A DNA stretch of 64,000 nucleotides from Flaccisagitta enflata (lineage: Eukaryota): NCBI GenBank assembly GCA_965153355.1, contig OZ231126.1, positions 35,154,001 to 35,218,000 of the forward strand, in the 5' to 3' direction. A program made the translations under genes and the position numbers. Each line of letters begins with the position of its first letter. Within the stretch, counting starts at the first letter, position 1. The notes under the pieces are model-generated. The model did no database searches. It saw only the letters and a program-made list of their open reading frames with translations, and was not told the origin of the DNA. Below, piece by piece: positions 7,250 through 55,807 of this stretch.

Positions 7250-7252
7250 CTT

Positions 7253-30256: not shown

Positions 30257-30301
<45 letters not shown>

Positions 30302-30930: not shown

Positions 30931-31004
<74 letters not shown>

Positions 31005-33243: not shown

Positions 33244-33585
33244 AGACGAAAATTTATAGTTAGCTCGCTGACCTTTAAGATGTAAACTGACATACTAGTC
33301 ATACTAGCCATACTAGTCATACTCAGTTTGCACCCTACATGTCTACAAGATGAGACGCAGACGCAAGATGAGACGCAAGATGAGACGCAAGATGAGACGC
33401 AAGATGAAACGCAAGATGAGACGCAAGATAAGACGCAAGATGAGACGCAAGATGAGACGCAGACACATGATGAGACGCAGACGCAGAGACGAAAATTTAT
33501 AGTCAGCTCGTTGACCTTTAAGATGTAAACTGAAAGGAACTCGGCGATTGGAACTCAGTTTGCATCTTACTTGTCTACAAGATGA
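33244..33585. repeat. 12-bp tandem (GAGACGCAAGAT)n flanked by a direct duplication
   Basis: AGACGAAAATTTATAGT.AGCTCG.TGACCTTTAAGATGTAAACTGA at ~33244 and ~33487. Confidence 0.8.
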
Positions 33586-34400
33586 AAACATTCCTTGAAC
33601 GAACAAATAAACAAAAATGAATAAATCGACAAATGAATAAATCAACAAAATGAATAGATTAATAAATCGATGATTGCTAAATGAACAAGAAGGATGAATA
33701 AATCGATTTAATTTCAAATGAGCAAATCGCTTTGAATAATAAAATGAATAAATTGCATAACAAATGAATAAATTGTATAAAATGAATAAATCGCATAATA
33801 AATTTAAACCGCTTTTAATTTTCTTATCACGTCATTCAGTTCATCATCACCACTTTCCCCGCTCTCCGCTTTCTTCTCTCTCCATTTGGTCCATTTTCCC
33901 TCCCCATTATTCCCATCGAAAAAAACATTTTTCCCAGCTGAAAATACTTTCTCCTCCTTCACTTCCGTCCTTTTCTCCTCCCCCACCGATCGATAACGAA
34001 CGCGACTCGGTTGTTTTGGGATATTTTCATTTTTCTGTGACGTCAAACATTTGTTTGTGTGTGTGTGTGTGTATAGGGTGTAATAGTCGAAATGGAAAAA
34101 AATGTTGAAGATGGCAGAGGTTTTTTAGGGTTTTGTAGAAATGGAAAAAATGGCGAAGCGAGAAAGATTGAAAGGTACAGTTTCAGCGGTCATGATTGAA
34201 AATATAAGAATTAGCTACCCACCATTTGTTTTACAATAATCTAGTCCCAAAGTGCAGAAAGAGCTATTAATAGTGTGGACATCATAACCCGTAATAGTTA
34301 CAGGAAAAATTGCAGAAAAAAGCTGAACCAGCTACAAGAATAGTCTAAAGCCACAAAAATCCCGAGAAAACTTATCTATTATTTTTTTGTACCTTTCTTC

Positions 34401-35694
34401 TCACAAAGCAGTTGAACGAAAAAGCCCCACCAAACCATAATCCTCATCATCTCCACAAGTTCCCCTTCCTCTACCACTTGCTCCCCTCGGTCCTCCTCTG
34501 ACTCCTCTGTTTCCCCCTCTATTCGCTCTGCCTCCTCTGTTTCCTCCTCTTGGTCTCCCTACTCTTCCACCTCTTACTCCGTTTCTTCTAGCCACAACTC
34601 TTTCCATTCTGTCTCTCTCCGACCTTGCCTCTCTTTCATTTCTCTCCGCTCTAAGGGCACTCATCACTACTTCCAAATTTCTCAATTGCTCCTCATGCCT
34701 CTCCCTCGCCCTCTCCATCTCCATATCCATGCTCTCGTCAGTCCTCAACTCCTGCGCCTCCTCATCCGCTGCAATCTCATTTGGCATCGTAGGATCGAAG
34801 GGATCATTACGCAACTGTTGTTGTCGCGTTAATGAATGGAATTAAATAACTTAAACTTAGTAAATATAACTAGATACAATCAAAGAGGCGTATAATCTAA
34901 GAGGCGTACAAACTAAGAGGCGTACAAACTAGGAGTATACAAACTAGATTAGGATAGTCTCGTTTGTAACAGGCCTTGTAACTAAAAGTGTACAAACTAG
35001 ATTATGGTTGCTTATGGAAAAAATAATTACCAAGGCCGCCATATTGATGCCCTCCGGCAGCTGCGGCAGCTCCCTATCGCGGCGGCGGGCAACAAAGCGG
35101 CGTGTAGCCGCACCGATCCCGACAAAGACGCCGAGAGCCAAAATTGTTACCGCGGACCCGATCCTTATGAGGATTTGAACCGAATCGCGATAAAGCAGAT
35201 ACAAGAACTTAATTCGCGATATTTGATTTAGAACTATGAAAATTTGCGGTTCGAATACATGATTTAACTTACAATGCGCTTTTCCAATCGACGGTTTGCG
35301 GGTGGGGAAGCGGAGAAGAGGATGACGCGATCGTAATGTCCGCCGCTTGTCCGACCGAATGCTCGTCCGATTGTCCATCGTTGATTGTAATGTCCGCCGT
35401 CTGTTCACGTTTATCCGATTGTTCGTAGCCGACCGTAACGTCCGTTGTCTGGCTGTTGTCCGATGAATCCTCGACGTTTGACGAGAAGGCGGAGGAAGAG
35501 GAAGAGGATGTTGTGGTGGAGGTAGAGGCGGAAGCGGCGCGGAATGAGGAAGAAGTGGTGGAGGCGGATAAGAGGGACGGGCGCGTGGGCGATGCCGCCG
35601 ACGAAGTTGATGAGGATGATGACGAAGATGTTGATGATGTGGTTTGTTGTTGTTTTGTCTTGTTTTTCTTTTGTTTGTGTTTTGAAACCAGTGT

Positions 35695-35736
<42 letters not shown>

Positions 35737-35994
35737 TTGTTCCCGTTGTTTGTCTTCTTGTTGTTTTTGTTGTTCTTTTTGTTGTTGTTTGGGTTCTTCT
35801 TTTTTTTGTTCTTCTTGTTCTTTTTGTTCTTGTTCTTTTTGTTCTTGTTCTTTACGTTGTTGTTTTTTGTGTTCTTCTTGTTCTTCTTGTTTCTTTTGTT
35901 CTTTTTGTTTTTTCTGTTGTTCTTGGTCGTCTTGTTGTTTTTGTTTTTGATCCGTTTTCTGTTTAAATTCTTGTTGTTCTTGTTGTTGTTGTTG
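34401..35994 (-). CDS. Putative spliced single-pass membrane protein (Q/E/K-rich and S/T-rich region, TM helix, charged and RGG-rich tail); 5' end unresolved
   Basis: Stop-free frame 35994-35273, then GTAAGT...AG intron 35272-35164, exon 35163-35031, GTAATT...CAG intron 35030-34815, exon 34814-34401. Joins read VDWKSAL|IGSAVTILALGVFVGIGAATRR...NMAAL|LRNDPF...RGGRVGRPRGGNRGG. Confidence 0.55.
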
Positions 35995-36322
35995 TTAGTA
36001 GTAAGTCTTCTGGTCTTAGGAGTCGAAATTTATAGCTGGACACTATGACGTCATCACTAAATCTAAGGGAAATACCTAGTGCTCCTACCTACAGCTCTCT
36101 TTATTTCTATAGTAAATTTGATTTAGCAGTACAAGTTCATAGCTTGAAATCCCTATAGAGTGGCCAGATTTCTATGCTGGTCAAGCTTTAACTTAAGATT
36201 ACGGCCATGTGAACGTTTCTCCGGCCAATCATAAGGTACAGTACAGTATTTACTATCTTCTACTATACTTTGTATAGCAAATGAAGCTGACCACAGGTTA
36301 GTAACAAAGAAATAAAGAGGGA

Positions 36323-36358
<36 letters not shown>

Positions 36359-36534
36359 AGAAAGAGAGAGAGAGAAAGAAAGAAAGAAAGGAAGAAAGAA
36401 AGAAGGAAAGAAAGAAAGAAAGAAAGAAAGGCGATGACCATTGAAAGATAGCAGGAGGATAGAAGAAGATAGAAAGAAGGATAGAAATGATGATGACCAT
36501 CCAAAATACTATAAGATAAGAAGTATTACTACTA

Positions 36535-36745
36535 TCGCCAAAATCACAGTCTGTACCATGAACTTGTACCTTCTGTGATTTGGGCTCCGGCTGCCAAAAT
36601 CATGGCCTGTACCATGAACTTGTACCTTCTGTGATTTGGGCTCCGGCTGCCAAAATCATAGCCCGTACCATGAACTTGTACCTTCTGTGATTCGGCTCTG
36701 GCTGCCAAAATCATAGCCCGTACCTAGTTCGTGTACTTTCTGACA
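36535..36745. repeat. ~56-bp tandem repeat, ~3.5 copies
   Basis: GCCAAAATCA...GTACCATGAACTTGTACCTTCTGTGATT repeated. Confidence 0.85.
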
Positions 36746-37649
36746 TTGGCCTTTTGTTTCTTCTTAGATGAAAAGGAGAAGTACTTGGTATAGAGCTGAG
36801 AAATTAGGAACGGCTGAGTTAAGGAAAGGGTTGAGGAGGAGATGCACAGATATAAGGAATGGTTAAAAAACCTTGAAAGGCTTATTGAAAAAGTAAATTT
36901 TGATATATGGATGCATAAGTATATTGGAATGGCAGGTTTAAGGTTTTTGAGGTTCTTCTCAGGTATTTTGGTATACCCTTTCAGGTTTTTGGTAGTCCAT
37001 TTTAGGTGTATTGAAGGTACGTTTTTGGTTGTTGTATGAGAAATTGGGTAAATTATAATGCCTGAAAAGGTTTTTTATTGTTACTTTAAAGGTTGTTTTG
37101 ATTGAAATTTTTTTAAAGAGAATTGTAAAGGCAAAATGAAGTTTTGAAATACAAAATGGCATAGTAAATGTGATATGAAAGGTAGGAAGATTAAAGGGAC
37201 ATAGTAAGGTACATTTATAGTATTGGTAAATTTGAAGATTTTGGTTTGAGCATTTTTGGTAACATTTATATGGTGCAAAATACGGTTAGTTACCTAATGG
37301 TTCTATAGTCAGTTGACGGCTAAGATGAAAGATAGACAATACAGGTTAGTTTGATCATGAGATAGAACAACATAGATAGAAAGACAGAGATAGAAAGAGC
37401 GAAAAGATAACAGAGATAGAAAGACAGACATAGAAAGACAGAAAACATGACATGAAAAAAATGGAGGAGGAAGAGGAGTGAGGAAGAGGAAGAGGAAGAG
37501 GAACAGGAAATAAAAAAAATATATGAAAGTTAATAGGAAGAGGAAGAGAAATGGAGGAAAAGAAAGATAGAAAAGAAATATAAGGAGGCGGAAGAGGAAG
37601 AGGAAAAGCATATATATATATAAGCATGATTTTACAATTTTTATTCATA

Positions 37650-38723
37650 ATGATGGCTGAATTAAATGAAAATTTTTATTCCACAAAAACTCATAAATAT
37701 CCTCCGTCAAGTTTTCTACTTTTACTGGGAAATAGTAATTGTGGTATGCAACAAAAAAATACTTTTTATAGCTAAAATAAGACTTCAGATTTGAGGCCAA
37801 TACCTAGTTCTTATACTTTTGATTGGAAAATATTTTTCAAAGAAATTTGAGGCCAATACCTAGTTCTAATACTTTTGATTGGAAAATATTTTTATAGAAA
37901 TAATTTAAGCCCAATACCCTGTTCTAATACTTTTGATTAAAAATATTTTTCTTAGAAATTTGAGGCCAATACCTTGTTCTAATACTTTTGATAATAACTC
38001 GTTAAAAGTATTTTTGTTGCATATTTAATTTATGGATAAAAAGGAAAGACTACATTTTTATTGGAGACAATTAAAGACCATGAAAATCATTTTGTGACCA
38101 AGCCAACAAAGGTCATTTATTTTTTTCGCGAGGAGTGTAGTGCTGTGACAGAATTGAGAAAGTTTTTTTCTGAAAAAAATGATATTAAAGGATTGTTCCT
38201 AAGAAAGATTCCAGAGACAAATTTTATCGAAAGTTTGGGAATTGAAAAAGGATCCACTTGTATAATTTTTGACGACTTTCATGTACAAGCTTTATCAAGT
38301 GAGCCACTGAGGGAAACTCTTTTGAACCTCAGTAGTGTGTGGAATCACCATTATCAAATTGTGACATTTTATGTGGCACAGCAATATGACATGTTCCTGA
38401 AGTCGTCCAAACTGAATGGCCTTTTGGTTAACTCAACCCATATTGTCCTGTGGAGATCCAATCACGACGTTAAAACTATCAAAAGAAATTTGGATCGATA
38501 TTTTGTTAAGCTTAAAGGAGATCTGACATTGTGGAAAATATTTGAACGCTATGTTCAAAGTGAACAATATAAGTTTTTACTGATTTGTGTTTCTCCTTTG
38601 TGTCGACGGCCTTCGGTTTGGATGAATACTTTAATGTCGTCAGATGATCAAGTTCTTTCCTTCCATGAGTCGGACTCAGAATCGGATGATCAGGGAGAGA
38701 TTGATAGTGTGCAAGTACAGTAA
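37650..38723 (+). CDS. A32/FtsK-like genome packaging ATPase, 2 exons (37650-37743, 38044-38723), ~257 aa
   Basis: Splicing out GTATGC...AAG (37744-38043) rebuilds Walker A LLLGNSNCG|KTT. Walker B CIIFDDF and the A32-type NHHYQIVTFYVAQQ segment follow. Confidence 0.9.
37787..37992. repeat. 55-bp tandem repeat in the ATPase intron
   Basis: AGAAATTTGAGGCCAATACCT.GTTCTAATACTTTTGATT..AAAATATTTT, ~4 copies. Confidence 0.9.
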
Positions 38724-38734
38724 GCAGTCAATCT

Positions 38735-39064
38735 ATGGCGTGTCGAAAAAAAAAGCATTTAAGATCATTCTTAGATGCTTGTGTCACTGACTCCTTGTTT
38801 ACTAAGGATTTGAAGACCAACGTTTTCGTTTGCATAATTGAAATTGTGAAAAATTGCATGAAATCAAAGCTGAAGCATTGTTTCTCATCAAAAACTTTGA
38901 AATACATTGCCAAAAACATAAAACTTTTGAAATTCTTAAAAAGTAAAAAAATTTCTTTAAAAAAACGAAAAAAGAGATTCTTACGGTGTTCAAAAAAGGA
39001 GCAAAAATTGTTTTACAATCATATTTTGTATGATTTTATAAACAACTGTTTAGAATGTGATTGA
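38735..39064 (+). CDS. Small basic conserved Polinton/adintovirus protein (109 aa)
   Basis: CIIEIVKNCMK...KLLKFLKSKKISLKKRKK resembles the ICExxxNxLxG...LRxLxxKKxSxKKKK pattern of the small basic ORF I recall beside the ATPase in Polintons. Its stop overlaps the next ATG (TGATG). Confidence 0.65.
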   Translation: MACRKKKHLRSFLDACVTDSLFTKDLKTNVFVCIIEIVKNCMKSKLKHCFSSKTLKYIAKNIKLLKFLKSKKISLKKRKKRFLRCSKKEQKLFYNHILYDFINNCLECD

Positions 39065-40317
39065 TGGGCGAAAAAAAAATGAGTTCTACTAATCCCACTA
39101 GTTATGTGAAATCTCCTTTTTTGAAGTCGGTTTTAGACGAGGAAGGGACTTCATGCGAGGAAAAGATTGAGAAGATTAAAGGCCTTGTTGAGGGGAAAAA
39201 ATTATCCCTTTTGAAAAGTGGACAAAGTGCAACAGGAAGTAGTCAGACAAACAGCAACAATGCCCCCAATGGAAATGCACCATTGAATTCTAACAATAAT
39301 GGTAATGTGCCATTGGCTCCTAGCAACGAATCTGATGCTGTTTTGAGCGGATTAAGTGGGAATAAAGAGCGTCAACTTGGTGAAACAATTTTGGATGAAA
39401 TAAATCGAAGTAACTTAATTGACTATGACAAAAATACTTTTGAGATCATAGTGCAATCTGAAGTGATAAAGTTCTCAAACATAAAAAATTTGATTTCATT
39501 TTGTGTGACGTCAAACGCAGCGCAAATCCCAATTGGCTGCACAATTTTTATTGAAGCTTTAATGCAAATAAAAGCCTCAATAGCATCTCTGAGGAGTGGG
39601 GACGCTCAAATTATCAAAGAGGATTTATTGAGAGTGCGCGCTTTGCATGAACAAGATAGTAATTCTATGAGGCCATCGTTACCTAATACCGACGGAGGTG
39701 CGGAGGCTGACAGCGGTGGAGGGGAAGCAACAATTGAAAGTGGCGCTGGAAGCGGAGTGGCTGACAGCGGCGTTGGTAGCGAAGGTGTATCCGTTGAATT
39801 ACCAAGAGAGGGTATTGACGCGGAGATAGGAGACGGTAATAGAAGAGGGAGGAAGAGAAAGGTGGCGTCTTCTAGTGAAGAGGAATTGGCACCGGCGAAG
39901 AGACGGTTTAACGTTCCAGAATCGGATTTGTCCAATCTGAGGAGGTATGGTAATGGGAGTATGACACGGGAATGTTAAATGACTGTTTGCCTGATTGTCT
40001 GCCTATATGCTTGCATGTAAGCTTGTTTTTAGGTCATGTGTTTGTATACATGTCTGACTGTTGATTGGTTGCCTTCTAGTAACGGATAAGCGACTTTATA
40101 AGGGGTCTTGTCCGTCCGTCGGTCCATTGGTCCGTCGGCCGGTGCACCGTTCCGTGTGATCGAGTCTGGAAGTATGAAAACGCGCATTTACGCCCCTGCC
40201 CACTTTGTTCCTGTTTTTGTTTTTAGGAGTCCGAGGCTCGTATCAAAAATTGAGGAAGCTTGGTCTACAGGGGTTGTGGATGAACCCGCGAAAGGAAGAA
40301 GGAAAAAGAAAAAATGA
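39064..40317 (+). CDS. Conserved Polinton protein of unknown function, 2 exons (39064-39944, 40227-40317), ~323 aa
   Basis: ILDEINRSNLIDYDKNTFEIIVQSEVIKFSNIKNLI...PIGCTIFIEAL matches the Polinton WNxxGELIxxGxxIxGSNIxDL...PxGxxxFxxAL pattern. A GTATGG...TTTTAG intron joins LRR|SPRL, and the spliced stop overlaps the integrase ATG (ATGA). Confidence 0.75.
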
Positions 40318-41492
40318 GATCAAAAGTACGACAATTATTGGATTCTGGTTTACGTGATAAAAGTTCTCCATTGTTTCTTTCAAAAAACAAAACTGAAATC
40401 AAGAAGTTTTTTGAATCAAGAGGATTTGATATTGATGAAAAGGAAATAGACCAATATTTGCAAGAAGAACGGTCTAATGGCATCCTTATTAGAAATGATT
40501 CTGAACGGAAAAAAAAGGAAATATCTCGGGCGATGGTTTTAGCCCCAAAGTTCTTTTCTTGGGTATTTTCAGATGTTTTACATTTAAGTAAGAGTCGTGA
40601 TTATGGGAAAGATAGTACCAAATACGTGGTACTAATTGTTGACAGTTTGAGTTTATTTTGTTATTTAGCTCCATTAAAATCAACTAAAGCTGATGATTTG
40701 ATTTCTGCATTCAAATCTGTTTTTTTGCGTAGTCCTTATTTACCAGAGCATTGTGAACGTTTGAGTGTTGATATGGGTATTGAGTATCTCGCTAAAAAAT
40801 CGCGTGCTTTTTTTTCTTCTCATGGTATTCGTTTGAATCCCATCCCACCTAAAAGATTGGACCGAAGGTCGTATGGTGCAAATTTTGCAGAGGTCATGAA
40901 TAGGTCTCTGAGATCGTACCTCGAAAAACTTCAATTCAATGATGAAATGGTGAAGTTGACATGGGCAGAAAAATTGTTAGCCATTGAAAATAGAATGAAC
41001 AAAAAGGCAAGAGCTGTTTTTAAAGGGCACAGTAGCGTTGATATGTTATCGCAGTCGCCAAAATATGTACAAATGCTAAAATATGATCGGCGCTTTGTAA
41101 GTAGAAAGTTTTTAAAGGAACACATGAAAAATCCTAAAAATATTGTACTGTTTTCTATTGTGAAAATTCAAAAATACAAGCCTAAAGAAGGTTTGGGGTA
41201 CAAGGAAAGCTATTCATCTTTTTCATCACAGTTTTACATTGTTTTGGAAAGACATGAGCACGATCATATTTTTTTCTTTACCCTTGGATCAGTGTTTTCG
41301 TTACAGCCTGTGTCTGATTCGAAATTCTCCTTTTATGAGTTGAAGGTGTTTAATGAGGTATCTTTGGCCAAAGCTCGTTATCTTAATTGTCTTGCAGAGC
41401 CACTTGAAAAAAAAAACATTGGGGATTATTCATATTTTAAAGTGAAAAATTGTGATAAGGTTTTCTATGCTTCAAAACATGCCTTTGATTAG
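40314..41492 (+). CDS. int: Retroviral-like (c-integrase) DDE integrase, intact, intronless, 392 aa
   Basis: WVFSDV...YVVLIVDSLSLFCYLAPLKSTK...LSVDMGIEY...AEVMNRSLR: canonical rve core with D, D and E residues. Confidence 0.93.
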   Translation: MRSKVRQLLDSGLRDKSSPLFLSKNKTEIKKFFESRGFDIDEKEIDQYLQEERSNGILIRNDSERKKKEISRAMVLAPKFFSWVFSDVLHLSKSRDYGKDSTKYVVLIVDSLSLFCYLAPLKSTKADDLISAFKSVFLRSPYLPEHCERLSVDMGIEYLAKKSRAFFSSHGIRLNPIPPKRLDRRSYGANFAEVMNRSLRSYLEKLQFNDEMVKLTWAEKLLAIENRMNKKARAVFKGHSSVDMLSQSPKYVQMLKYDRRFVSRKFLKEHMKNPKNIVLFSIVKIQKYKPKEGLGYKESYSSFSSQFYIVLERHEHDHIFFFTLGSVFSLQPVSDSKFSFYELKVFNEVSLAKARYLNCLAEPLEKKNIGDYSYFKVKNCDKVFYASKHAFD

Positions 41493-41598
41493 TACGGTTT
41501 AATTGTGTACAGATTACAATGAATGCTACTACAGGGAATTGGTCTGTTGGGCCTGTATGGGATGAGCCAACACTACTCTAAGTAGCTGGGTTACCACT

Positions 41599-41889
41599 GT
41601 GAATGGAGAAAGTAATCGATCAACGACATATGATTGGACGACTGTGGCACCTGAGATTGAATTGGAACTGAAATGGATTGAACCTTTGGCGATAGTGATG
41701 GATGGTTTTTTCGTGATGTTGGCCTTGCTGATGGTAGCTGTCTTCATTTTTGCGAAGTTGGCTGCATCTGCCCGACTGAGATGGGGTAGAAGATTTGAAG
41801 TTGATATGCGCATTGGAACTGTGCGAATGGCAGGAGGGCGGCCTGTGGAAATAAATGAAAGAAACGTTGCCCTGAGGAATATGGTTTGA
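41599..41889 (+). CDS. Small putative membrane protein (96 aa, GTG start uncertain)
   Basis: Hydrophobic stretch GFFVMLALLMVAVFIFA followed by basic residues; sits tightly between the integrase and the penton-like gene. Confidence 0.5.
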   Translation: MNGESNRSTTYDWTTVAPEIELELKWIEPLAIVMDGFFVMLALLMVAVFIFAKLAASARLRWGRRFEVDMRIGTVRMAGGRPVEINERNVALRNMV

Positions 41890-41901
41890 AGAGAAAGAGA
41901 T

Positions 41902-43029
41902 ATGGAGACCTTGAAAGTGATAAGAGTGACGACAAAAGACAGGGGATGTTATGTGCGTGAGAAGTCTTCATTTCATGTAAATATGAATGGACTAAACTTA
42001 AATGTTAACGAGAAAGAAAAAACATTTGTGAAGATGGAACAATTGGTTATGCCTGAAAAAGTGAAAAAACTGAATTTCATCATGAACTTTGGGTATGATA
42101 CCAAGTTTCTGAAAAGGGAAGATACTCATGAATATGAAATTAAGTATGTGTCTCTGAACGATTTATGCCATCAAGTTAACACTCTTGTTTACAACAATTT
42201 CATAACAAAGACCGGCTGCATAGAGAATGTCAATTCGGGAAGCAACGATGTACCTTTGAATGCCAATGCCACCGAAGAGAATGCGACCATTGAGAATCCA
42301 GTCGATGAGAATGTGAACGAGAATGCAGGCGCGGATTCGGACGGGAATGCAGACGTTGCCGAGGGTACAGTGGTGATAGATGGAAATACAGACGTTGCCG
42401 AGAGTCCAGTGGTGATAACTGGTCCTCCACCTGTAAAAAGAAAAGACAATGGAAATGTAAATAAAGTAGATCCAAATTTTGTAAAATATTCACTACGACA
42501 AAAAATGAGTGCGACAAACTCCGTTGTTCCTGTGGAGAATATGTTTTGTTTAAAGTATGTAGATGGTAGAGTACAGATGAAAATGGCTGCTGGATTCATG
42601 TTTTTTGCTAGTGTTCATTTGTTGTTGGCTTTAGGATTTAGAAGTGAAGTGATGCGCACATTTACCAGTAGCGGGAAAACCGAGGCGGAAGTCATGAAAG
42701 AGAGTGATAATTTGACATTGAAAATTTGTAGTTGTTTCAATATAAGTGATATTGTACATTTTGTTGCCGATGAAGACAGAATATGTCATATTGGATTTAA
42801 GAAACTTATTGAGCCTACATTTTTTGTAGATGGAAATATGCATTCAATTCTTTGCTCATACGATATTGAAAAAAAAGTCGTTTTGTGCAATTTAAAGCGT
42901 TTGAATAATGTGTCATTTCGCGAAGTGCAGTTTTGCTTGTATAATAATTTGTTTGAGCCTTATGAATTGGGTGTTTGTGTGAAAAAATGTCCTATTTCAT
43001 TCAATTTGGTTATTTGTAAAAAATTGTAG
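41902..43029 (+). CDS. Probable minor capsid protein (penton, single jelly-roll) with acidic low-complexity insert, 375 aa
   Basis: N-terminal SSFHVNMNGLNL...FVKMEQLVMP and C-terminal LIEPTFFVDGNMHSIL...FREVQFCLYN...PISFNLVICK resemble the two halves of the Polinton penton. Confidence 0.6.
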   Translation: METLKVIRVTTKDRGCYVREKSSFHVNMNGLNLNVNEKEKTFVKMEQLVMPEKVKKLNFIMNFGYDTKFLKREDTHEYEIKYVSLNDLCHQVNTLVYNNFITKTGCIENVNSGSNDVPLNANATEENATIENPVDENVNENAGADSDGNADVAEGTVVIDGNTDVAESPVVITGPPPVKRKDNGNVNKVDPNFVKYSLRQKMSATNSVVPVENMFCLKYVDGRVQMKMAAGFMFFASVHLLLALGFRSEVMRTFTSSGKTEAEVMKESDNLTLKICSCFNISDIVHFVADEDRICHIGFKKLIEPTFFVDGNMHSILCSYDIEKKVVLCNLKRLNNVSFREVQFCLYNNLFEPYELGVCVKKCPISFNLVICKKL

Positions 43030-43036
43030 GGTTAAA

Positions 43037-43521
43037 ATGAGTATTACGGGTACTGCGCTGGAAGTAATTAAGAAGAGAATGCGTGGTGAGGAACGGGAAG
43101 AAATATCTACAAGTGTGGAAAATAAAACGGCGTGAAAACATATAATGAAGACGTTAAAAACATGAAGAAGGGAAAGAAAAGATCCGCCAAAGGGAAACCC
43201 AAAAAGAAAGATGAAAAAAAAGATGATAAAAGTGGAAAAAAAACAACCGAAAAAAAACAGAAAGTGGAAAGAAAGAAGACAGGAAGAAGAGGCGAGAAAA
43301 AGGACAAGAAGTCTGACAAGAAAAAGGGGAAAGAAAGGGAGAAAAGAAAAAAGTCACCAAAACCAAAGACTGAAAAAAAAAGAAAGAGACGGGATAGTGA
43401 CTCTAGTAGCTCCTCTAGTAGTTCCTCAAGTTCAAGCTCAAATATAAGTTTGAGTTCATATTCTAGTTTGAGTTCAAGTGGATCATCAATGTTGGAAGAT
43501 ACTGAAACAAAGGAATCATGA
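43037..43521 (+). CDS. Lys-rich basic protein with poly-Ser tail; -1 frameshift near 43125
   Basis: The ATG 43037 frame (MSITGTALEVIKKRMRGEE...) joins ORF 43132-43521 if one A is restored in the AAAA run. Confidence 0.5.
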
Positions 43522-43629
43522 CACTCTGTGAATGATGACACTCTGTTTATATTTGTATATGAATGTACATATTTGTATATGAATGCATGAAACTGTAAAT
43601 TACTTGGTTATTAGGTGTAGAAAGTAACT

Positions 43630-44505
43630 ATGGGTAGAGAGCACAATCATGCCCCGATATGTAGTCGGTCTACACCTCTATGCCGTCTTATGGAACTTTA
43701 TGCTGAGGGATATATGTTGAATGAAGAGGATGGACATGAATTAGTAAGACAGTTGTTTCAGCGTGTAAATGGTTTTAAAGAAGAGGAAATAAAAAGATAC
43801 AATTTGAATTCTCGAAAGCGTCAAAGTAACTTAAGATGTTATCATAACATAGAACCAACAGTTCCACCAACGGATTGGAAGGAGTATTTGGTGAAGCAAG
43901 AGAAACTGCGTGAAAAAAGAGAAGAGATGAAGAAAAGAAAACTTGATGACAAAGAATGTGAAGCGGCAAAAAAGAAACAGCGAATGTCGGAATCCACTAA
44001 CGGCAAACCGAACGGCGAAATGAGTGGCGAACGACAAACGACGAACGGTGAACGGGGAGCGACGAACGACGAAAGACAAACGGCGAACGGCGAAAGGGGA
44101 GCGGCGAATGGGGAACGACGAACGGGGAATGGACGGCGATGGGTGGCTGAAGAAGGGCGATGGGAATGGGCGTCGAATGACGAGGATGAGACGTCAAATG
44201 TCGATGGAGGAAGGATGAATGACAAAGAAACAAGGAACAAAATGAATGACTAAAACAATGAAAATGTCCAGGATGGAGTTAAGTGGGAAAGCATATCTCT
44301 TGACGATCTCGATAAAGTGTTGGCATCATTAGATAAAAACGTTTATGCATCACAAGAAGATTGGGACAAAAGTGTAAGAGACTGGGAGAAAATGATAAAT
44401 GGCGCTGCGAAATGCCTGCCAAAAAAAGATCAAAAGAAAAAGACAAATGAACAGAAAGGAAAAGAAGGAAATAATGACGATGGCGATATCATTGTAATTG
44501 ATTGA
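43630..44505 (+). pseudogene. Hypothetical protein (~290 aa) interrupted by one in-frame TAA at 44251-44253
   Basis: ORFs 43630-44253 and 44317-44505 are in the same frame and the 21 codons between them are open. Contains NGER-type repeats and a coiled-coil-like segment. Confidence 0.55.
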
Positions 44506-44613
44506 TTTAGTTTGGCATTGTATACAGCGTGTTATAATGAATTGAAATATCATATTTGTGCAGGTAACTTTGACAAAATTGAACCTTGAACACTGAACAT
44601 TAAACATTGAACT

Positions 44614-45159
44614 ATGTCATGCCCGGGCATTGATATGAGGCCACAACCAGTGCCTATTTTGCAATGTAGGCGCTGTCAATGTTATGATGGATGCGATTTG
44701 GTTAAAGTCAGCGTTGTGACGAAGAATCTTCAAAAGTACAACGACCAATGCGAGTTGGTTACCTTGGAGGAACTGTTGAATGGGAAGATGCCAAGATGCT
44801 ATTTCGATGAGAAACCGGAGGAGCCATCGCCATCGCCAAAGCCATCGCCATCGCCAAGGCCGGTGACAAGGGGAATGAAACGAAGAAATGAGGGCGAGGA
44901 CGCGGTGCCCGTGGACCGAAGAACGGAAGAGCGAAACGCGAGTATGAAGAACAATGCGAAGGCGGTACGCGTTTGCGTTGGACCCGAGGATGGCGTTGTC
45001 ATGGAGATATCGTTATTCAAGCAGTCCTGCGTTGGGAGATGTGAGAAAGAACATTGTGGATTTTGTTATGCAATGAAAAAGCCTAGTGAAAGTATGAAGG
45101 CTGTGCGTAGAAAGAAGAAACAAATGTTGCGAAAGCGAGTTGTGAACCACTACTATTGA
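44614..45159 (+). CDS. Cys-rich hypothetical protein (181 aa), possible Zn-binding
   Basis: ATG-initiated ORF with CRRCQCYDGC and CVGRCEKEHCGFC clusters and an SP-repeat linker. Confidence 0.6.
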   Translation: MSCPGIDMRPQPVPILQCRRCQCYDGCDLVKVSVVTKNLQKYNDQCELVTLEELLNGKMPRCYFDEKPEEPSPSPKPSPSPRPVTRGMKRRNEGEDAVPVDRRTEERNASMKNNAKAVRVCVGPEDGVVMEISLFKQSCVGRCEKEHCGFCYAMKKPSESMKAVRRKKKQMLRKRVVNHYY

Positions 45160-45236
45160 GACATAAGATGTTAAGATGTTAAGATGATTAAGGAAAGATT
45201 TACATGTGAATGAAATAAATTTGATGTGTTGTATAT

Positions 45237-45800
45237 TTGTCTCAGATTGATATTGAAAATTGTGGTTTGGAACTGGAAACGTTGACATTTGCAGTGAAAA
45301 AAATGGATGAATCGAGAAGCGATGAAGAGTTTAACGATGGCATGGATTGTGGAAAAGTGATGGAGGGGAGAGATGTTGATCAGGAGATTGTGGCTAGTGG
45401 GGGAGGAGAGGGGGCTGAAGCAAGTGGGTGCGATGTTGAAAGTGAAACTGACAGCGATGAAGGGATGCCAGTTTCTCTGGAACAGCGTTTGGATGCGATC
45501 GACGCGAAACTTGGCGATTTGTGCATGGGGATGTCGTTGTTTAGCGAAAGACTTGGCGAACTAGTTGCATTGAGCAACAACCAAGCTGAAAGGAATTATG
45601 GAAAACGGGACACGGTGACGTCATTGATGTTTGAAACGTACGTGGATGAGGCCATTTCAAACGGGCATTCGTTTGGTGTCAGCCGGTGTTTCATTCAGGA
45701 ATTCATCACCAAAACATTCTCGCTGCCTTGCAACAAATATCTTCAGAGGAGAATTGGGGCAACGCTGGCAAAAAAGTTTCTGAAGGAGCTTACAAGTTGA
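45237..45800 (+). CDS. Acidic protein with C-terminal linker-histone (H15)-like winged-helix segment
   Basis: YVDEAISNGHSFGVSRCFIQEFITKTF...LQRRIGATLAKK fits the H1/H5 globular pattern hhxEAI...GxSRxxIxxYIxxxY. Start may be the ATG at 45303. Confidence 0.5.
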   Translation: MSQIDIENCGLELETLTFAVKKMDESRSDEEFNDGMDCGKVMEGRDVDQEIVASGGGEGAEASGCDVESETDSDEGMPVSLEQRLDAIDAKLGDLCMGMSLFSERLGELVALSNNQAERNYGKRDTVTSLMFETYVDEAISNGHSFGVSRCFIQEFITKTFSLPCNKYLQRRIGATLAKKFLKELTS

Positions 45801-46111
45801 GAACAACCTGTATTCCTTCTACAAGGAACAGAGCAAAAAAATCTGATTCATAGTGCTTTATGGGCATGTGTTTAAGTGCCCAAGTGCCCAAGTGCCCAAG
45901 TGCTAAAGAGCCCAAGTTTAAAAGTGCCCAAGTGGCCAAATGTTAAAATTTTGAAGTGCCCAAATGCCAAAGTGTTTAAATGCCTATATGTTTTTTAAAT
46001 GCCTTCATGTTTTTGAAATTCTAAAGAGATAAAGAAAGTAATTTTGCATGTGTTTTGATGTTATTTTTTTTAATTTTAAGTGCTGCTGTGACAAAGAAAA
46101 AAAAACTGAAA

Positions 46112-49089
46112 ATGGAAACTTTAGTGTCAGATTCAACTATTCAAATTTTGGATATATGTAAGCTATCCATCATCCCGGATTCCTTTGCTGGCATATATAG
46201 TGGATCAATTATTGATGTGGCACAGCAAATACGTTGAAAAATGCTACCACGGTATGAATATTGGTATTTGAGGGGGGGGGATATGAGATATGATAATGCA
46301 GTTGTAGATGGTTGGTACAGATAAATGGATCAATAGTTGCATATTCTTTTTTTTTGTATTTTCAGGTTACTTTCCAAATTCCCCCGAATGTTCCCTCCGA
46401 ACTGTATGGCAAAATGTCACATTTGATATTGACGGTGCATTTGAAAAAAACGGGTGGAAGTTATGAAAGTACAGACCAAATCAGTTGTGTCAACTTTCTT
46501 CCTTGTTTTTTATTCGAAACAATTAGAGTGTTAATTGGAGGAGATGAAGTAAGTATAGTGTGTATTGGTGGTGCTCATGCCCATGCCCACATCTATAGAA
46601 ATGCCCACGTTTGCATTTGTATATACCCATGCCCTGTATATACCCTTTGAAGTACATGCCCATGTCTCGTGCCAGTACCCATGTCTGTGCCCATTTGAGT
46701 GTTTAAGTTTATGCCCGTGCAATCGCCTGTGCCCGTGTCCATTACATGCCCGTGCCCGTGCCCCTGTCCGTGTTCGTGCCTGTGCCCAAGTACATGTTTG
46801 TGCTCATCCACAGATGTTTTGTTGGTGAATGATTGTGATTTTTGTTTGTACAGGTGTTTGAGGACGATCGCATAACAGATCATTTATTGTTTTTGCGTCT
46901 CATGCTGGAGTTCACTGAGCAAGAACGACAGACAGAATTCCATACTATGGCTTACCGAAAAGACACGGATGGTAACAGCGACTCATGTGAAACTGAACAA
47001 GACGGATTTTGTGTATGTAATTGTAAGTACTTTTTGGTATTTTGGGTATTTTTGGTATTTTCGGTATTGGTACCATTTTTTTGTCACATTGTAACAGTAA
47101 AGTTATATAGGATTTGTTACGCTAATTGACTCTAATAAATGTACTTTAGGCGGGCGCTGTTTTTGCAATCTCTTTTTTATCGATGGAATGGGATCTGGAC
47201 TTTGTGGTCTGAAGGATTATGATGCCATTGTCAAAGATGGGGTAAAACAAACTGCCGCACAAATAAAGGATACTTTACTCAAAAAAAAAAATTTCAACGA
47301 AGGTAAAAAAAGCCAATGAGAGAGAGGGGGATGAGAGTGTTTATTGAAGAGGGTTAGGGGGTAGGGGTAGGGGTAGGGGTAGGGGTAGGAAAAGATAATT
47401 ACATGTAGTAATAAATGTTATAACGTTTTAGGTCTTTACGAGCGATCAAAATTGATTCGCAAATGTGCTGAAACTGAGGGCATGGAATTTTGTGTCCCAC
47501 TGCGGCTGCTTAGCCGTTTTTTCGATTTAGGATTTCTGATACCTCAAAAAAGAATTGTAGGTCAGTGCAATGTATTTAGCCAACCGACCAACCGACCAAC
47601 TGACCAACCGACCGACACGGCCAGTCATAGATGCTTTTGTCGCACCTAAATTGTAATGCTTATTTAAAGAGGTCTCACTGGAGATGCACGGTGAAAGAAA
47701 GATTTTGATAAAGAACACGACAAATTCTGATAATTTTGAATTATCGCTTTTGAATGCTCGCGTGGCTCTACAATATTTCAAATTGGAAACAAATGTACGG
47801 ACAAGGTGAGTGTGGCGGCTACCCCAGATGCGTGTAGATGGGCAGGGGACTTAATTGAGGTCCACAGATCATTTTGGCAGGAGCAGTAAAGCCCAAAATC
47901 CCAAAACCCAAAAAAAAATAATAAAGTGTGACTGACGGACGGACGGATCAACGGACCAACGGACCTCCAAAGCGGGATGTAGAGTCACGCGTAACACGCG
48001 ACTAAAAAAATATGTGTTTGGTGGATTTTTATATATTTTTTCATTGATACTGTGTGGATTCATGGCATTTTTGTATTAATTTTACAGTTGGTACGATTTA
48101 ATAAATTCTGAGAGCATTCGTCGTGTCATTCCTGTCTCTCACATTAGGTATGTGCATGCAAGTAGACGGATGGACCAATTGACAGAGGGACAAGCTGATA
48201 GATGGACAGACAGGGTTGACCACAAACGGATCAGTTGTTAGAGTACAAGTAGTGTTGATGGTTCCTGTAAGTATGACAGTGAGATAGAGGGATTGACTGC
48301 TGACATGTATTGACACGTTTGCATACTTTTAGGCATTACACACTTCAGAAAGGATCGTCTCTGTACTTCCTTAACTCGGCGTGCTCATTCCAGCGTATCC
48401 CAGACTTGCTGGTGATTTTCTTTTCTGATGAGGTGAGTTTATAGGTTGAATTTGATATATTTTCACAGAAATTTGAGGCTAATACCTTGTTCTTATACTT
48501 TTGATTGAAAAATATTTTTATAGAAATTTAAGCCCAATACCTTGTTCTAATACTTTTGATTGAAAAATATTTTCATAGAAATTAAAGCCCAATACCTTGT
48601 TCTAATACTTTTGATTGAAAAATATTTTCATAGAAATGAATAAATGATTGTATCATACAGGAGAAATACCTTGGGAATTTCCAAAATCGCTTTGTGTATC
48701 ATCATGAGGACCTACAACAGATTGAGGTCTTCAAAAACGGCCAATTGGTGCCTCAACCCTCTTTCTTGAACAACATGGATCTTTCAAATGAAAATTCATT
48801 GGCTAATGACCATTGGTACCGTGAGTTACTTCGGAATTTCCCGAAAGCGGTCGACAGTATTTCCAGAGTGAAATTTCAAAAAGAGTTATATTTGTTTTGC
48901 TTCCCATTTGAATCCACTCCGAGGCATTTGATGAATTCAGATGATGGTTTGAATCTCATTTCCTCTGGAACTATTGATTTGCGGCTAAGATTCAAATCTA
49001 GCCTTACATCAAACAAGATTATTCAAATCGCTTCCTTCGAAAAATCACTGGTGCAATGTGATGCATCTGGGAATATCCTTGTTAATTGA
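46112..49089 (+). CDS. Double jelly-roll major capsid protein, 9 exons/8 introns, ~499 aa; 1-nt frameshift in exon 1 (~46229)
   Basis: Exons 46112-46251, 46366-46548, 46854-47022, 47150-47302, 47432-47560, 47670-47805, 48088-48147, 48333-48432, 48661-49089. All introns are GT-AG and phase-matched. The product has Polinton MCP motifs in order: VTFQIP, VNFLPCFLFETIRV, AYRKDT, NEGLYER, YTLQKG, GNFQNRFVY, GTIDLRLRF, VQCDASGNI. Confidence 0.9.
48467..48637. repeat. Same 55-bp tandem repeat in MCP intron 8
   Basis: Units start at 48467, 48522 and 48577. Confidence 0.9.
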
Positions 49090-49113
49090 ACGTTTATGAT
49101 AGAGAGAGAGATT

Positions 49114-49187
<74 letters not shown>

Positions 49188-49316
49188 CGTGTCACTTAGA
49201 TTGATATGCATCCCCCCATTTGCCTATGATTTGTAAAGCTGCATTGTGAATTTTGTACTGATAGTAGATGTATTGAAATTTGTTTTTGTGTAGTTTTGCT
49301 TTGCCAGTTACCTGAG

Positions 49317-49565
49317 ATGGCTAAGGCACGGAGAAATAAGAAAGGACAATTTGTGCGAGACGAAACTCTCCATGGAACGCGAAGGCGAAAGAGACGACGC
49401 AGACGACGAAAATCTCGAAGGTCGAAGCGAGGACGAAGGAGAAAACGTGGGCTTTTGTCGGCGACAAAGTCGAGAAGAAGAAGAAGGAGACGCCGGAGCT
49501 CTGGGTGCGATGGAATTCCGAGTCGTTTAGTAGTGATGGCCAAGAGAAGGCTGAAATCAAAGTAA
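49317..49565 (+). CDS. Protamine-like Arg-rich core protein (82 aa)
   Basis: MAKARRNKKGQFV...RRRKRRRRRRKSRRSKRGRRRKR; mixed Arg codons, so not a microsatellite artefact; lies directly after the MCP. Confidence 0.7.
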   Translation: MAKARRNKKGQFVRDETLHGTRRRKRRRRRRKSRRSKRGRRRKRGLLSATKSRRRRRRRRSSGCDGIPSRLVVMAKRRLKSK

Positions 49566-49569
49566 AATG

Positions 49570-50072
49570 ATTTTCTACTCTATAGGAAATCTTTTGGCGA
49601 CAATTCTATGTACGAAAGACGAAGAAAGTTCCGACGATTTGAGGGTTATTTATGAATAATAACTATTGCCATGAAAAGACAGAGACCATATTATCAGTTT
49701 AAATCATCAACTACTGCGCCCTGTCATGACTGCACCGTGCCAAAATGCAGTGTTTTACATTGGTTTGCTGTAATGAAAATTGTAAAAAAAAAATGATCTA
49801 TGCTATGGATCGTGATTTTAGCTGAATAATGAATGTTATTAATTAACTATTTGTTATAGAAAATTACAAAAAAAAAAATGGTCACACATTTAAAAGACAT
49901 TTATCAGTGGTACTGAAACTGCGGCAATCACCTGCTCTTGTCCTTTGCGTTGCATGGAATTGGAAAATGTAGGAGTGGAAATAGTGTCAGCGTGGCACCA
50001 CTGCCTCGAATGCGGAGAGTGACGTTTCCAGATAAACTCAAATTGAGAGGCCGAACTCAACACCAAAAATGA
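49570..50072 (+). pseudogene. Possible decayed adenain-type cysteine protease
   Basis: LHWFAVM (His codon 49758), IYAMD in a shifted frame, and YQWY*NCGNHLL (Cys codon 49920) give the H-D-Q-C order. That frame's stop overlaps the PolB ATG (ATGA). Several stops are present. Confidence 0.35.
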
Positions 50073-53000
50073 GTGGTCTAAGTTATGCTGAAATAAATAA
50101 TGCGATAGATAGGGATTTGGACAGTACTGTCGCTGGAAATGACTATTGTGATGAATTAAGAAGAGTTGTTGAAGCCAACTGGAACACTGTAAGAAATCAG
50201 ATCACGGTTAATCCCAACATGATGGTGAGCGAATTTAATTTTCGTCTGTCAAGTAATCGCCCGCTTAGTGATGCCCATGTCCGTAACTGGTGGCCGTCCC
50301 CTCTACATGTGTCAAACTACCTCATAGAATTTGTGAGAGGGGTTTTATACCACTATTATGTCAGATTAAGGAGATCAGTAAGAATTCAGTTTAGTCCAAA
50401 CATGGCGATTATCTCAACTACTGGAGGGCCTAGTAACTTCATTTGGGCTTCCCGCAGTAATTGGGGGATTTTAGGCCAATCCTATCTCATACATGACATT
50501 CAATCATTTAACCATTTCATTGATGTCATTCTCAAAAATGAGGATTTACATCAAGCCATGTTAGCAAGTTTATCGAGTTTAAGCAGTAAATATAGTGACG
50601 GCTTTTGGCCCCGCTTTCACTGACATTTCATCTAACAAGTGTGCCCTCCAAGATATTTGGCAACAATGGAAGATGTTTAAGTGAGCATAAATGTACCGAT
50701 GGTAGTTGTGACAGCAATGCATGTGTGTGGCTTGCATTAAGCAGTATTTTTGACGTGGACAAATGTGGAAATGCAAAAAGGATGAGTTCAGAAATGGGGA
50801 AAGGAAAAGGACAAGGGCAAAGAACAAAGTTAACAGAAAAATATGCAAAGTTAGGGAAAAAGTTTTTGGCATGGCTGAAAAAAAGAGGAAAGGAAAAGGA
50901 CATTCTTTCAGAGAAAATTGGTCATTTGGGATTACCAGAAAGATACTTAGGCGAATTGGAAAAATTCTTAGGTCATTCCATGATTTTGCTAAGTGAAAAA
51001 ACCATGAATATGAGAAAGGTTGCCAATGACACAGTATTAAAAACTACAAAATATCAAAGATACTTCTCTTCAAAGAATGTGTCAGACAGTGATTACGGGA
51101 ATTTCATTTATCTGTTAACCAAAAATGAAAACCACGTGCAGACAGTGCTAAACTTACAGAAATATTCTCGAAAATTTGTATGTTCAAAATGCACAAGGTG
51201 TTTTTCTCGTATAGAATGGTTAGAATATCATCAAAAGTTCAAAGTATGCGAAAAAAAACGCTTTGTTGCCGAGAAGCAAGTGAATTTTCCCTATTCCGCG
51301 GAAAAAATTGTGTCAGAAACGGTTGAATTTGAACATTTGAGCATTTGCAAGGATACCAAGTACACTCATTGCTTAATTAATGTTGAAAAGGACTCATCAG
51401 TGAGTTTGACGATGCAGATTGATTTGAAAGGCACTGATCAAATGTTGATGTCAAGGAGATTTGAAAGTTTAGGGGAATGTGCCTCATTCATCATGAAATT
51501 CGGAGCAAAATGTGCCATATGGGTCTTAGGAGAAAGATTAGTGTTGCACTTTGACTCACTACAAAAAATAGAAACAGCAGCAGTTATGAAAATTGCGACC
51601 CGGAAGCAATCGATAGGAGCAAATTGAAGCATCTGCAGATGGTTAAAACTGAAATTGTCAAATATTTGAGCAAATATGACATTTATTTGTCAGTTGGCCA
51701 GGAAGACCCCAAAATAGTGAGCAATTTTATGTTTGAATTGTTGTCAATGCTGAGCGATGGTCGAGAATGTGAAACCATACATGTCAAGTTCGATCAAAAT
51801 GTGCTACAATTTGTTGCTGTAGACCAATTTCCTCTGAATTTTATACTGTTAAATAAATTTGGAGCAACATTTCAAGGGAATATAGCGACTGCAGACATGT
51901 TGGCACATTTCAATGATACTGTGAGTTTGTTCAAAAGTGAATTTGGACTGAATATTGTGGGTCAAAGAAATTCAACTCAGATCGGTAGGCATTTAATGGC
52001 CAGTACATTAGATGAAGGCAGGAGAAACGCCCTGTTTTCCCCGCCCTTGGCTTTTTCTCATGAACTAGACGAAACATTTGTTTCATACGGAGTATTAAAT
52101 GCCAAAAAAGCATTTGTCATGATCAAGGATTTATGAAAGGAGCAATGAATGTGGATTTCGAAAAATTTTATGGCCATTTAGTATTGAAAAAAAATGCTAA
52201 TTGGATGTTGGTCGGACTGCCGCACATGTACGTGAGAAAAGGAACAACATATGTCACAAAACAGAGTCGAAAGCGTCACACATTTTCTAACATGATTTTA
52301 GGCGTTATAGAGTTTTGTTGAGACGCTCTGTTTTCTATATCTCACTTAAATGGTCAAGAAAATATGAGATATGGAATGCTATTCGATGCTATTCTCAAAA
52401 TCGAAGGGAACGAGGTGTTCTATGAAGCCGACGGGTGCATATGGCATAGTTGCCCAAAAATATGCCATTTAAGTGAAGCTAATGTGATGAAAGGTCACAA
52501 ACCGTACTGTGACGCATGCAAAAATGACGAAATGGTTGGCGATGGTAGCGCCCACTTGAAATTCTTAAAGCCTCGACTCTGGAAAATGAGAACAAATGAA
52601 CAAAGAGATTCGGTCCACGCTCTGAAGAAAAACGTTACCTATGATGAGGATTACAAAAACACGTTAGAGAAGGCGGCACTTATGTATAAAAGAAGCGGAA
52701 AAAGAATTGTAAGCGTATCCGAATGCCACGTGCTGCGTTTTTGGCATAAAAGTATTGGAGCATTTATGGACAGTCTAAAACTGCCATGTAAATTTGACTG
52801 TCGTGATATACAGTTATCAACACTTGTGGAGCAGATAACCATGCAAAATTTCCCTCTGCTAAGATATGGAGCATTGACTCATGATAAGGTGATAACTGCA
52901 ATCAAACATGGAGATTTGAATGGCTTTGTGAAATGCACCACAGTTGCAGGAGACAAAACAAGGCATAACTTAGGAGTTTTGAAACCTTTTTTTTACACAA

Positions 53001-53967: not shown

Positions 53968-53974
53968 TTTAAAT

Positions 53975-55755: not shown

Positions 55756-55807
<52 letters not shown>

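Follow-up and report, generated by a model that had tools for sequence, protein, structure and literature searches.

A 55-nt tandem repeat in two predicted introns of a virus-like element from the Flaccisagitta enflata genome

Introduction

How the same tandem repeat comes to lie in introns of two different genes of one small virus-like element is the question raised by a 64,000-nucleotide (nt) stretch of the Flaccisagitta enflata genome (assembly GCA_965153355.1, contig OZ231126.1, positions 35,154,001 to 35,218,000 of the forward strand), which is referred to here as the window and numbered from its first letter. The unit is about 55 nt long and occurs in an interval interrupting an ATPase gene, here called intron A, and in intron 8 of a capsid-like gene. 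The initial annotation of this DNA proposed that the unit was either an introner-like mobile sequence that had created both introns or a cis-element shared by two virion-assembly genes. Similar introns in viral capsid and packaging genes have recently been used as a sign of intron-generating transposons in mirusviruses, and such transposons have been suggested to travel in integrated Polinton-like viruses as well. The reading favoured here, at roughly even odds (a probability of about 0.5), is a different one, namely that a repeat cassette private to the element, or nearly so, was copied as a block between two introns that already existed and has since evolved neutrally.

The repeat unit and its two arrays

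The unit forms two arrays, which are direct repeats of each other 10.7 kb apart:

37787-37992, + strand: array A, with units A1 (56 nt), A2 (58 nt), A3 (55 nt) and the partial unit A4 (37 nt)
48445-48637, + strand: array B, with the partial unit B0 (24 nt) and units B1 (55 nt), B2 (55 nt) and B3 (59 nt)

Four methods agree on this description. Tandem Repeats Finder (TRF) places array A at 37789-37992 (period 56, 3.6 copies, 86 % matches, score 306) and array B at 48457-48637 (period 55, 3.3 copies, 93 % matches, score 313). A 28-nt core of the unit, with up to three mismatches allowed, matches the window seven times, always on the + strand, four times in 37797-37993 and three times in 48479-48616, while none of 100 shuffled sequences contained any match. 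The two arrays align by blastn at 89.5 % identity over 172 nt and at 90.3 % over 165 nt (E ~1e-57), and an nhmmer profile built from the six full units gives seven matches in the window at E ≤ 4.9e-12, all of them inside the two arrays, the next-best matches elsewhere in the 64 kb having E values of 0.13, 0.15 and 0.61. The initial count of about four units in the ATPase intron and three in intron 8, in a shared orientation, is thus confirmed, as is the absence of the unit from the flanks, where neither the core pattern nor the profile finds it.

Both arrays appear to extend somewhat further towards the 5′ splice site. A degenerate partial unit lies upstream of array A, reaching to ~37758 (5′ flank against the unit, p 0.02), and another is held by the 5′ flank of array B (p 0.03), with array-derived sequence beginning 14–24 nt from the 5′ splice site in both introns. 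After its removal, ~46–65 nt of each intron are left. The arrays are not an artefact of the window's assembly, because independent contigs from public sequencing runs bridge array and unique flank (X4 record 17, 37921-38839; X12 record 1, 37902-38568; X12 record 7, 48247-48488).

A separate array lies upstream of the ATPase gene:

36537-36724, + strand: array of a 56-nt unit, unrelated to the 55-nt unit

The end of this array (36535-36745 in the initial annotation) had been thought to resemble the shared unit faintly, a likeness that proved not to be significant: the best blastn match was 23 nt at 87 % (E 0.5), nhmmer returned E 0.61, and alignment to the consensus units scored 11–12 against a shuffle mean of 11.8–11.9, with 346 of 500 and 278 of 500 shuffles reaching the score.

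The two introns

The arrays occupy the following features:

37650-37743, + strand: exon 1 of the ATPase gene, starting ATGATG, its translation closing with GNSNC and one further base, which begins a Gly codon (sequence and translation)
37744-38043, + strand: intron A, 300 nt, GTATGC...AAAAAG, phase 1 (reading of the sequence)
38044-38723, + strand: exon 2 of the ATPase gene, with a Walker B-like IIFDD (eight relatives among public metagenome proteins)
46112-49089, + strand: capsid-like gene, nine exons and eight GT-AG introns, colinear with the uninterrupted proteins P0049 (513 aa) and P0054 (508 aa)
48433-48660, + strand: intron 8 of the capsid-like gene, 228 nt, GTGAGT...ATACAG, phase 0 (homologues ungapped across the junction)

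The open reading frame (ORF) 37584-37775 runs into a stop inside intron A, and removal of the interval gives the translation GNSNC-G-KTT, a Walker A motif of the form GxxxxGKT. Intron A would accordingly split a conserved Walker A codon, and its splice signals are weak. Among the eight relatives of the ATPase, none reaches the Walker A motif and two break ~21 residues downstream of the window's intron; the gene has no match in Pfam, PHROG or NCBIfam and no PDB sequence match.

In the capsid-like gene, the pieces encoded by the window match P0049 and P0054 in order, introns 1–7 being placed by enumeration of in-frame GT-AG solutions and the ends of intron 8 by reading of the sequence and alignment of homologues. 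Removal of intron 8 restores colinearity with P0011, P0012, P0049 and P0054. The label 'intron 8', which was used in the initial annotation, is a fair one, as a start at 46112 yields eight introns. The GT-AG ends and the restored reading frames suggest that both array-bearing intervals are spliceosomal introns that are removed from the transcripts. That the arrays sit in intervals interrupting the reading frames of two genes therefore stands, while the description of these genes as viral is a tentative one, as the evidence for the viral labels is weak.

A search of the full library with the last exon of the capsid-like gene returned 48 related proteins at E ≤ 1e-3, and these, like all relatives of the element's proteins, are metagenome proteins. 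In P0010, which is 87 % identical, the match to the window breaks off precisely at the junction of intron 8, which makes this intron position older than the copy in the window. Other relatives have boundaries elsewhere: in P0031 and P0032 one lies nine codons downstream of the junction and another after SISRKRY, where P0036 also changes, and P0021 has an in-frame insert in the intron-8 region, in which P0011, P0012, P0049 and P0054 are uninterrupted. Intron positions therefore turn over in the capsid-like family.

Repeat-filled introns are not peculiar to the shared unit. Tandem repeats occur in seven of the eight capsid-like introns and are all of different kinds, those of introns 2–7 (46549-48332) having units of their own (a 24-nt unit, a 9-nt unit, GGGGTA, CCAACCGA, ACGGACCA and a 16-nt unit), and the exons are nearly free of such repeats. 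Short introns inflated by repeats are thus the rule in this gene. Its introns other than intron 8 are 109–305 nt long and have a GC content of 0.28–0.48, compared with 0.24 for intron 8 and 0.25 for intron A.

Intron ends and a possible introner origin

One rival reading is that the unit belongs to a small mobile sequence that inserted in coding sequence and thereby made one or both introns, in the manner of the intron-generating transposons of aquatic eukaryotes and of integrated Polinton-like viruses. A structure in favour of such an element is a pair of terminal inverted repeats in intron A:

37745-37766, + strand: 5′ arm of the inverted repeat (blastn, 22 nt, 90.9 % against 38023-38004)
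38004-38023, + strand: 3′ arm, ending 20 nt before the 3′ splice site

The arms match at 20 of 22 positions with one 2-nt gap, and their local alignment score of 33 (shuffles, 14.8 ± 3.0) was reached by two of 5000 shuffles. They close the predicted minimum-energy RNA fold of the intron (z −3.14). The segment that they bound, 37747-38022, has TA on both sides, which could be a target duplication, although one that is indistinguishable from the palindrome itself. A second occurrence of the 3′ arm, with up to three mismatches, was not found in the window. Intron 8 lacks such a repeat (its score was matched by 1978 of 2000 shuffles), and in seven further introns of the capsid-like gene the best result of the same test was equalled by 47 of 2000 shuffles.

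The similarity of the two introns does not extend beyond the arrays. The flanks of the arrays are unrelated (5′ p 0.18, 3′ p 0.93) and give no blastn alignment, and the distances from array to splice site differ. The arrays also start and stop at different points of the unit: array A opens at unit position 1 and breaks off near position 37 of its fourth unit, and array B opens with a unit tail and closes at the end of a full unit. Only the satellite is therefore shared, the ends that carry the splice sites being unrelated, and in intron A 20 nt separate the 3′ arm from the splice site, which means that intron and putative element do not coincide.

The verdict on an introner depends on the definition applied. 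For mirusviruses, PMC12768974 speaks of candidate introners when two or more introns within a single viral genome match each other at blastn E < 1e-5 and the match does not run into the exons, and most of its candidates lie in genes for the major capsid protein (MCP; n=21) and for terminase (n=15). The pair of intron A and intron 8 falls within this loose definition, the similarity having E ~1e-57 and the alignments stopping inside the introns. The stricter Gozashti pipeline recognizes a family only when four or more introns of a genome are alike and the genes that hold them are not paralogues (PMC9860276), and pairs with satellite-driven homology are discarded in curation (PMC12130899). Here, two sites are present in the window, all similarity between the introns lies in the 55-nt array, and the splice sites vary in where they fall with respect to it.

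Further points nevertheless speak for an introner. The two introns belong to unrelated genes of one element, intron A combines its inverted repeats and flanking TA with a split Walker A codon and weak splice signals, and the boundaries described above vary among relatives (P0031, P0032, P0036 and P0021, against the uninterrupted P0011, P0012, P0049 and P0054). In four dinoflagellate genomes, introners were reported for ~25 % of integrated viral elements (PMC12166617). In addition, one metatranscriptome contig of run X15 (depth 3.7) joins unit sequence, up to 37948, to exon 9 of the capsid-like gene, from 48919, across 19 letters of other sequence; either a relative has a third intron with the repeat or the contig is chimeric, and the evidence is one record of low depth for which no side length is given. 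Taken with the host DNA run X4, in which the arrays show no excess depth (see below), we regard an introner origin as unlikely. The proposal of the initial annotation thus survives in part, in that the loose definition applies, the unit is not a scattered host repeat and intron A carries inverted repeats, and is weakened by the unrelated flanks, the different unit phases of the array ends, the lack of inverted repeats in intron 8 and the stricter published practice. A bolder version, in which the 55-nt cassette would be a virus-borne tandem-repeat intron-generating element that seeds introns in capsid and packaging genes of small integrating DNA viruses, independently of host introners, is distinctly unlikely.

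Three further routes to such introns were also considered and set aside. If the inverted-repeat segment of intron A were a simple miniature inverted-repeat transposable element (MITE) in an older intron, ~23 nt would be left, with a stop if these were read as exon. Transposition of a whole intron by reverse splicing is ruled out by the unrelated intron ends, and intron birth by tandem duplication of an exon by intron content unrelated to the flanking exons.

Unit subtypes and possible exchange between arrays

The units do not group by array. Unit A3 is nearest to B2 (51/54) and B3 (50/54), as against 46–47/54 to A1 and A2, and B1 is about equally near to A2 (51/55) and B2 (50/55). Two subtypes, alpha (A1, A2, A4, B1) and beta (A3, B2, B3), are each present in both arrays. 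Since the units are not sorted by array, the subtypes predate the split of the arrays, and since both arrays hold both subtypes, a multi-unit block was copied rather than one unit amplified twice.

The make-up of the arrays also varies. A joint from 37787 to 37921 is seen in runs X12 and X4, and in X12 record 1 A3 is immediately preceded by the tail of a B-type unit, a junction that is absent from the window and is not explained by a shared 31-mer. Together, these junctions indicate that array composition differs between copies or strains.

Interleaved subtypes and the X12 junction would also be produced by common descent with concerted evolution, in which one old intron-forming sequence gave rise to both introns, the ends diverged and the arrays were kept alike by gene conversion or unequal exchange within and between copies of the element. 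The arrays are direct repeats, and the element is multi-copy in X4, with 3918 contigs, of which 485, 724, 2290 and 419 fall in the likeness classes 99+, 95–99, 90–95 and <90, respectively. On the other hand, arrays as short as these (181–204 nt) and only ~90 % alike are poor substrates for conversion, the internal identity of array A (86.9 %, blastn) is below the identity between the arrays, which gives no sign of strong homogenization, and none of the recombinants shown reaches unique sequence on both sides. Concerted evolution is on balance improbable.

Copy number and the host genome

The initial annotation had named a common host minisatellite, scattered without regard to introns, as the finding that would undo its reading. 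The window is indeed very rich in tandem repeats (301 TRF rows at a score of at least 30), and a host repeat did enter the element, as described below, so that the presence of one minisatellite in both introns by chance has to be weighed. The copy number of the unit argues against it. No further copy lies in the window, which includes ~48 kb of flank, and in the host DNA run X4 the summed contig depth of the array bins was 6519 and 3502, compared with 2782–10604 for other bins of the element and with 195,659 and 177,620 for bins that contain a host-wide GTCC-type repeat. The arrays thus have the depth of the element, and the host repeat exceeds it ~60-fold, from which it follows that the unit does not belong to the high-copy minisatellites of the host. 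An exact 25-nt pattern of the unit had no match in three public collections (metagenome_contigs, viral_contigs and genome_contigs), which hold few eukaryote genomes, so this carries little weight. Chance presence of a common host repeat in both introns is accordingly a most improbable explanation. Searches for related loci by protein patterns, from one alignment in the viral and metagenome contigs and from P0049 and a second alignment in the viral contigs, gave pattern matches but no relative; a third alignment contained no conserved stretch.

The host-wide repeat, a low-complexity GTCC/GTCG-type sequence, occurs at ~40097-40143, before the integrase ORF, and at ~47930-47964, in intron 6 of the capsid-like gene, on opposite strands. 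Its presence shows that host repeats have entered the element. It is also the only part of the stretch with polyA RNA reads.

RNA evidence and a possible cis-element

One intron of the capsid-like gene is seen spliced in RNA, in agreement with its in-frame model solution:

47023-47149, + strand: intron 3 of the capsid-like gene, 127 nt (X15 joint 47022->47150, GT..AG, one contig, depth 3.5, side 61)

Removal of intron A or intron 8 is not among the joints listed for four runs, and unspliced contigs cross 38043/38044 (X12 record 1) and 48432/48433 (X12 record 7). Metatranscriptome contigs cover 25 of 30 and 23 of 30 bins, introns and spacers evenly, at a depth of 2–9, and may be DNA carry-over. 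In polyA RNA of the host (X24, ~6 % of the run), 344 reads were found, all partial and all <95 % alike, in three of 30 bins, which hold dispersed repeats. No polyA read fell on the unique parts of the element, the ~6 % of the run giving no verdict elsewhere.

Two features would fit a functional intronic sequence regulating two virion genes, whether as a protein-binding site, a splicing modulator or a source of small RNA. The unit has the same orientation in two genes that are expected to act late, and the alignment of the units reveals in each full unit a near-palindrome (AAAATATTTT), a branch-point-like word TTCTAAT and a T-rich stretch ending in AG, which by our reading resemble a 3′ splice-site module. 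Such a role is opposed by the fold of intron 8, which is worse than that of shuffled sequences (z +2.16), by the absence of any Rfam match at E ≤ 1 over 36400-49200, by differences of 6–15 % between units, by the varying make-up of the arrays, by the restriction of the unit to these two among the element's genes and by the lack of expression in the sampled host polyA RNA. The cis-element that the initial annotation offered as its second proposal has little in its favour apart from the occurrence of the unit in two genes and is very unlikely.

A proposed private cassette copied between introns

The reading that we prefer regards the unit as a 55-nt minisatellite that is private, or nearly private, to an integrated virus-like element and sits in two spliceosomal introns. 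A block of at least two to three units, already of two subtypes, would have been copied as DNA, with one intron as donor and the other as recipient; alternatively, both introns would have been seeded from one low-copy source. The copying may have proceeded by local transposition of a small tandem-repeat cassette with flanking inverted repeats, the form seen in intron A, or else by patch repair or template switching. In either case, the block would have arrived in short introns that were already present, and the arrays would later have changed by gain and loss of units and by point mutation, the cassette having no demonstrated function. The confinement of the unit supports this reading: all seven core matches and all seven significant profile matches lie in the two arrays.

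Several observations weigh against it. The depth in X4 bounds the number of copies outside the element only to the order of the element's own copy number. A single locus was read, in which no intron of the 'empty' kind appeared, and that the introns came before the arrays is accordingly a reconstruction. Removal of 37747-38022 would leave ~23 nt of intron A, which is implausibly short for a pre-existing intron, and the several different intron positions among relatives in the capsid-like region would fit active intron gain in this lineage. Finally, the two introns have been seen only unspliced, in RNA-library contigs that possibly derive from DNA carry-over, and no polyA read lies on the unique parts.

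The integrated element and its surroundings

The element (~37650-53964, ~16 kb) contains the ATPase gene, an integrase-like ORF, several ORFs without matches, the capsid-like gene and a large replication-type gene. Its gene set and size suggest a Polinton/Maverick-like integrated virus. Two genes remain to be listed:

40284-41492, + strand: 402-aa ORF resembling an integrase of the rve/DDE type (Pfam rve at E 9e-5; its 23.1 bits fall short of the 32.6 cut-off)
50069-53964, + strand: large replication-type gene, without introns (one 1299-aa ORF in P0063, a 96 %-identical relative)

The integrase-like ORF also matches the NCBIfam models of IS481 (E 2.9e-6) and IS30 (E 0.0039) transposases, both below the cut-offs, and has no PDB match. 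In the window, the large gene is broken into five colinear pieces in frames 2, 1, 3, 2 and 1, with no DNA between them; as the pieces are colinear without gaps and the relative has a single ORF, the gene is considered to be free of introns. The frameshifts indicate either a decayed copy or assembly indels. Introns are thereby concentrated in the virion-type genes, with eight in the capsid-like gene and at least one in the ATPase gene, compared with none in the 3.9-kb replication gene. In Pfam and PDB searches, a C2H2 zinc finger was the only feature matched in the 1299-aa protein. Two motifs that are invariant in the alignment of its relatives, KxxxNSAIG and NTDG, may, by eye, resemble motifs B and C of polB. 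Comparison with contigs from the runs lists a dozen places at which a single base is inserted or deleted relative to the window.

For the remaining proteins, family assignments are scarce. The 305-aa and 379-aa ORFs have no Pfam, PHROG, NCBIfam or PDB sequence match, and the capsid-like protein has no family or PDB sequence match, so that its capsid identity is a putative label on weak evidence. Residues 82-218 and 361-503 of P0049 align at 24 % identity over 157 aa (E 0.015; hhalign probability 0.5 %). The two halves share a stretch of the form I-x-V-x-I-N/G-G, a hint of two related domains, for which the profile comparison is not significant.

Terminal inverted repeats of the element were not found by blastn of 30000-38000 against 49000-64000, nor beyond chance between 36000-37700 and 53600-58000. 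The stretch is found in marine metagenome runs and host runs (20 rows, 10 studies). The window as a whole is eukaryote-like and AT-rich (GC 0.34–0.47 per 2 kb), and no host protein-coding gene, tRNA or Rfam family was recognized in its 64 kb. In the flanks, minisatellites lie at 27089-28461 (22-nt unit, 63 copies), 5978-6465 (73-nt unit, 6.7 copies) and 2745-3158 (21-nt unit, 20 copies), and a 601-nt inverted repeat, 99 % complementary (10804-11404 and 14162-14762), surrounds a 2.7-kb segment rich in AGA repeats. This 10804-14762 segment looks like a foldback-type element or one with terminal inverted repeats and is unrelated to the shared unit.

Comparison with known systems

Compared with ordinary intronic minisatellites, the arrays are alike in being short and AT-rich, with a variable number of units and no coding role. 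What sets them apart is that the 55-nt unit alone is shared between two introns 10.7 kb apart. Intron A also recalls DTC84, a tandem-repeat-containing MITE of the clam Donax trunculus, for which PMC3879986 describes up to five core repeats in a central array, their variants being ordered, with a palindrome inside every unit and short inverted repeats in the flanks. DTC84 differs in being a high-copy element with a conserved AA target duplication, whereas the window holds two copies, only one of them with inverted repeats, the arm is found once in the window and X4 shows no excess depth.

With Polintons/Mavericks, as described in PMC5718144, the element shares its size of ~16 kb and a gene set suggesting an ATPase, an rve integrase, a ~510-aa capsid-like protein and a ~1300-aa replication protein; it departs from them in lacking element terminal inverted repeats and in the absence of family matches for the capsid-like, ATPase and polymerase-like proteins. 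Intact vertebrate Mavericks are reported to be intronless (PMC8097293), in contrast to the eight introns of the capsid-like gene. Among the papers covered by our literature search, none describes a Polinton-like element with capsid genes rich in spliceosomal introns, and none an introner built of tandem repeats; subscription journals and supplements lay outside its range.

The integrated Polinton-like (eupolintoviral) elements of dinoflagellates offer a parallel, since there, too, intron-type insertions occur, in full-length elements with ATPase, MCP, pPolB and rve integrase genes, and most of these introners are judged to have been inserted after integration (PMC12166617). The dinoflagellate introners, as described there, form abundant host-wide families with a curated consensus, whereas no host-wide family was seen here, where the host is AT-rich and the introns are of the GT-AG type.

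If the cassette did create the introns, the locus would be a compact case for the study of intron birth in a virus, and if a virus-borne cassette of this kind generates introns, such elements could be spread by the Polinton-like viruses of marine eukaryotes. If it did not, a neutral minisatellite was copied between introns, which is of modest interest. The locus also exposes a weak point of the similarity criterion, as the likeness of the two introns is that of a satellite only and may say nothing about how they arose. The interest lies as much in the intron-rich capsid-like gene of a small integrating element as in the repeat.

Mirusviruses resemble the element in the distribution of their introns. 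They likewise have groups of similar introns, mainly in MCP and terminase or packaging genes, virion genes with far more introns than their other genes and intron positions that shift between close relatives (PMC12768974). The element described here differs in being much smaller (~16 kb), in its rve-type integrase, in being an integrated and frameshifted copy, and in that the shared part is a tandem repeat rather than a whole intron. A marine eukaryote thus carries, in a small element that lacks annotation, a mirusvirus-like pattern of intron-rich virion genes, an intronless replication gene, shifting intron positions and two introns that are alike.

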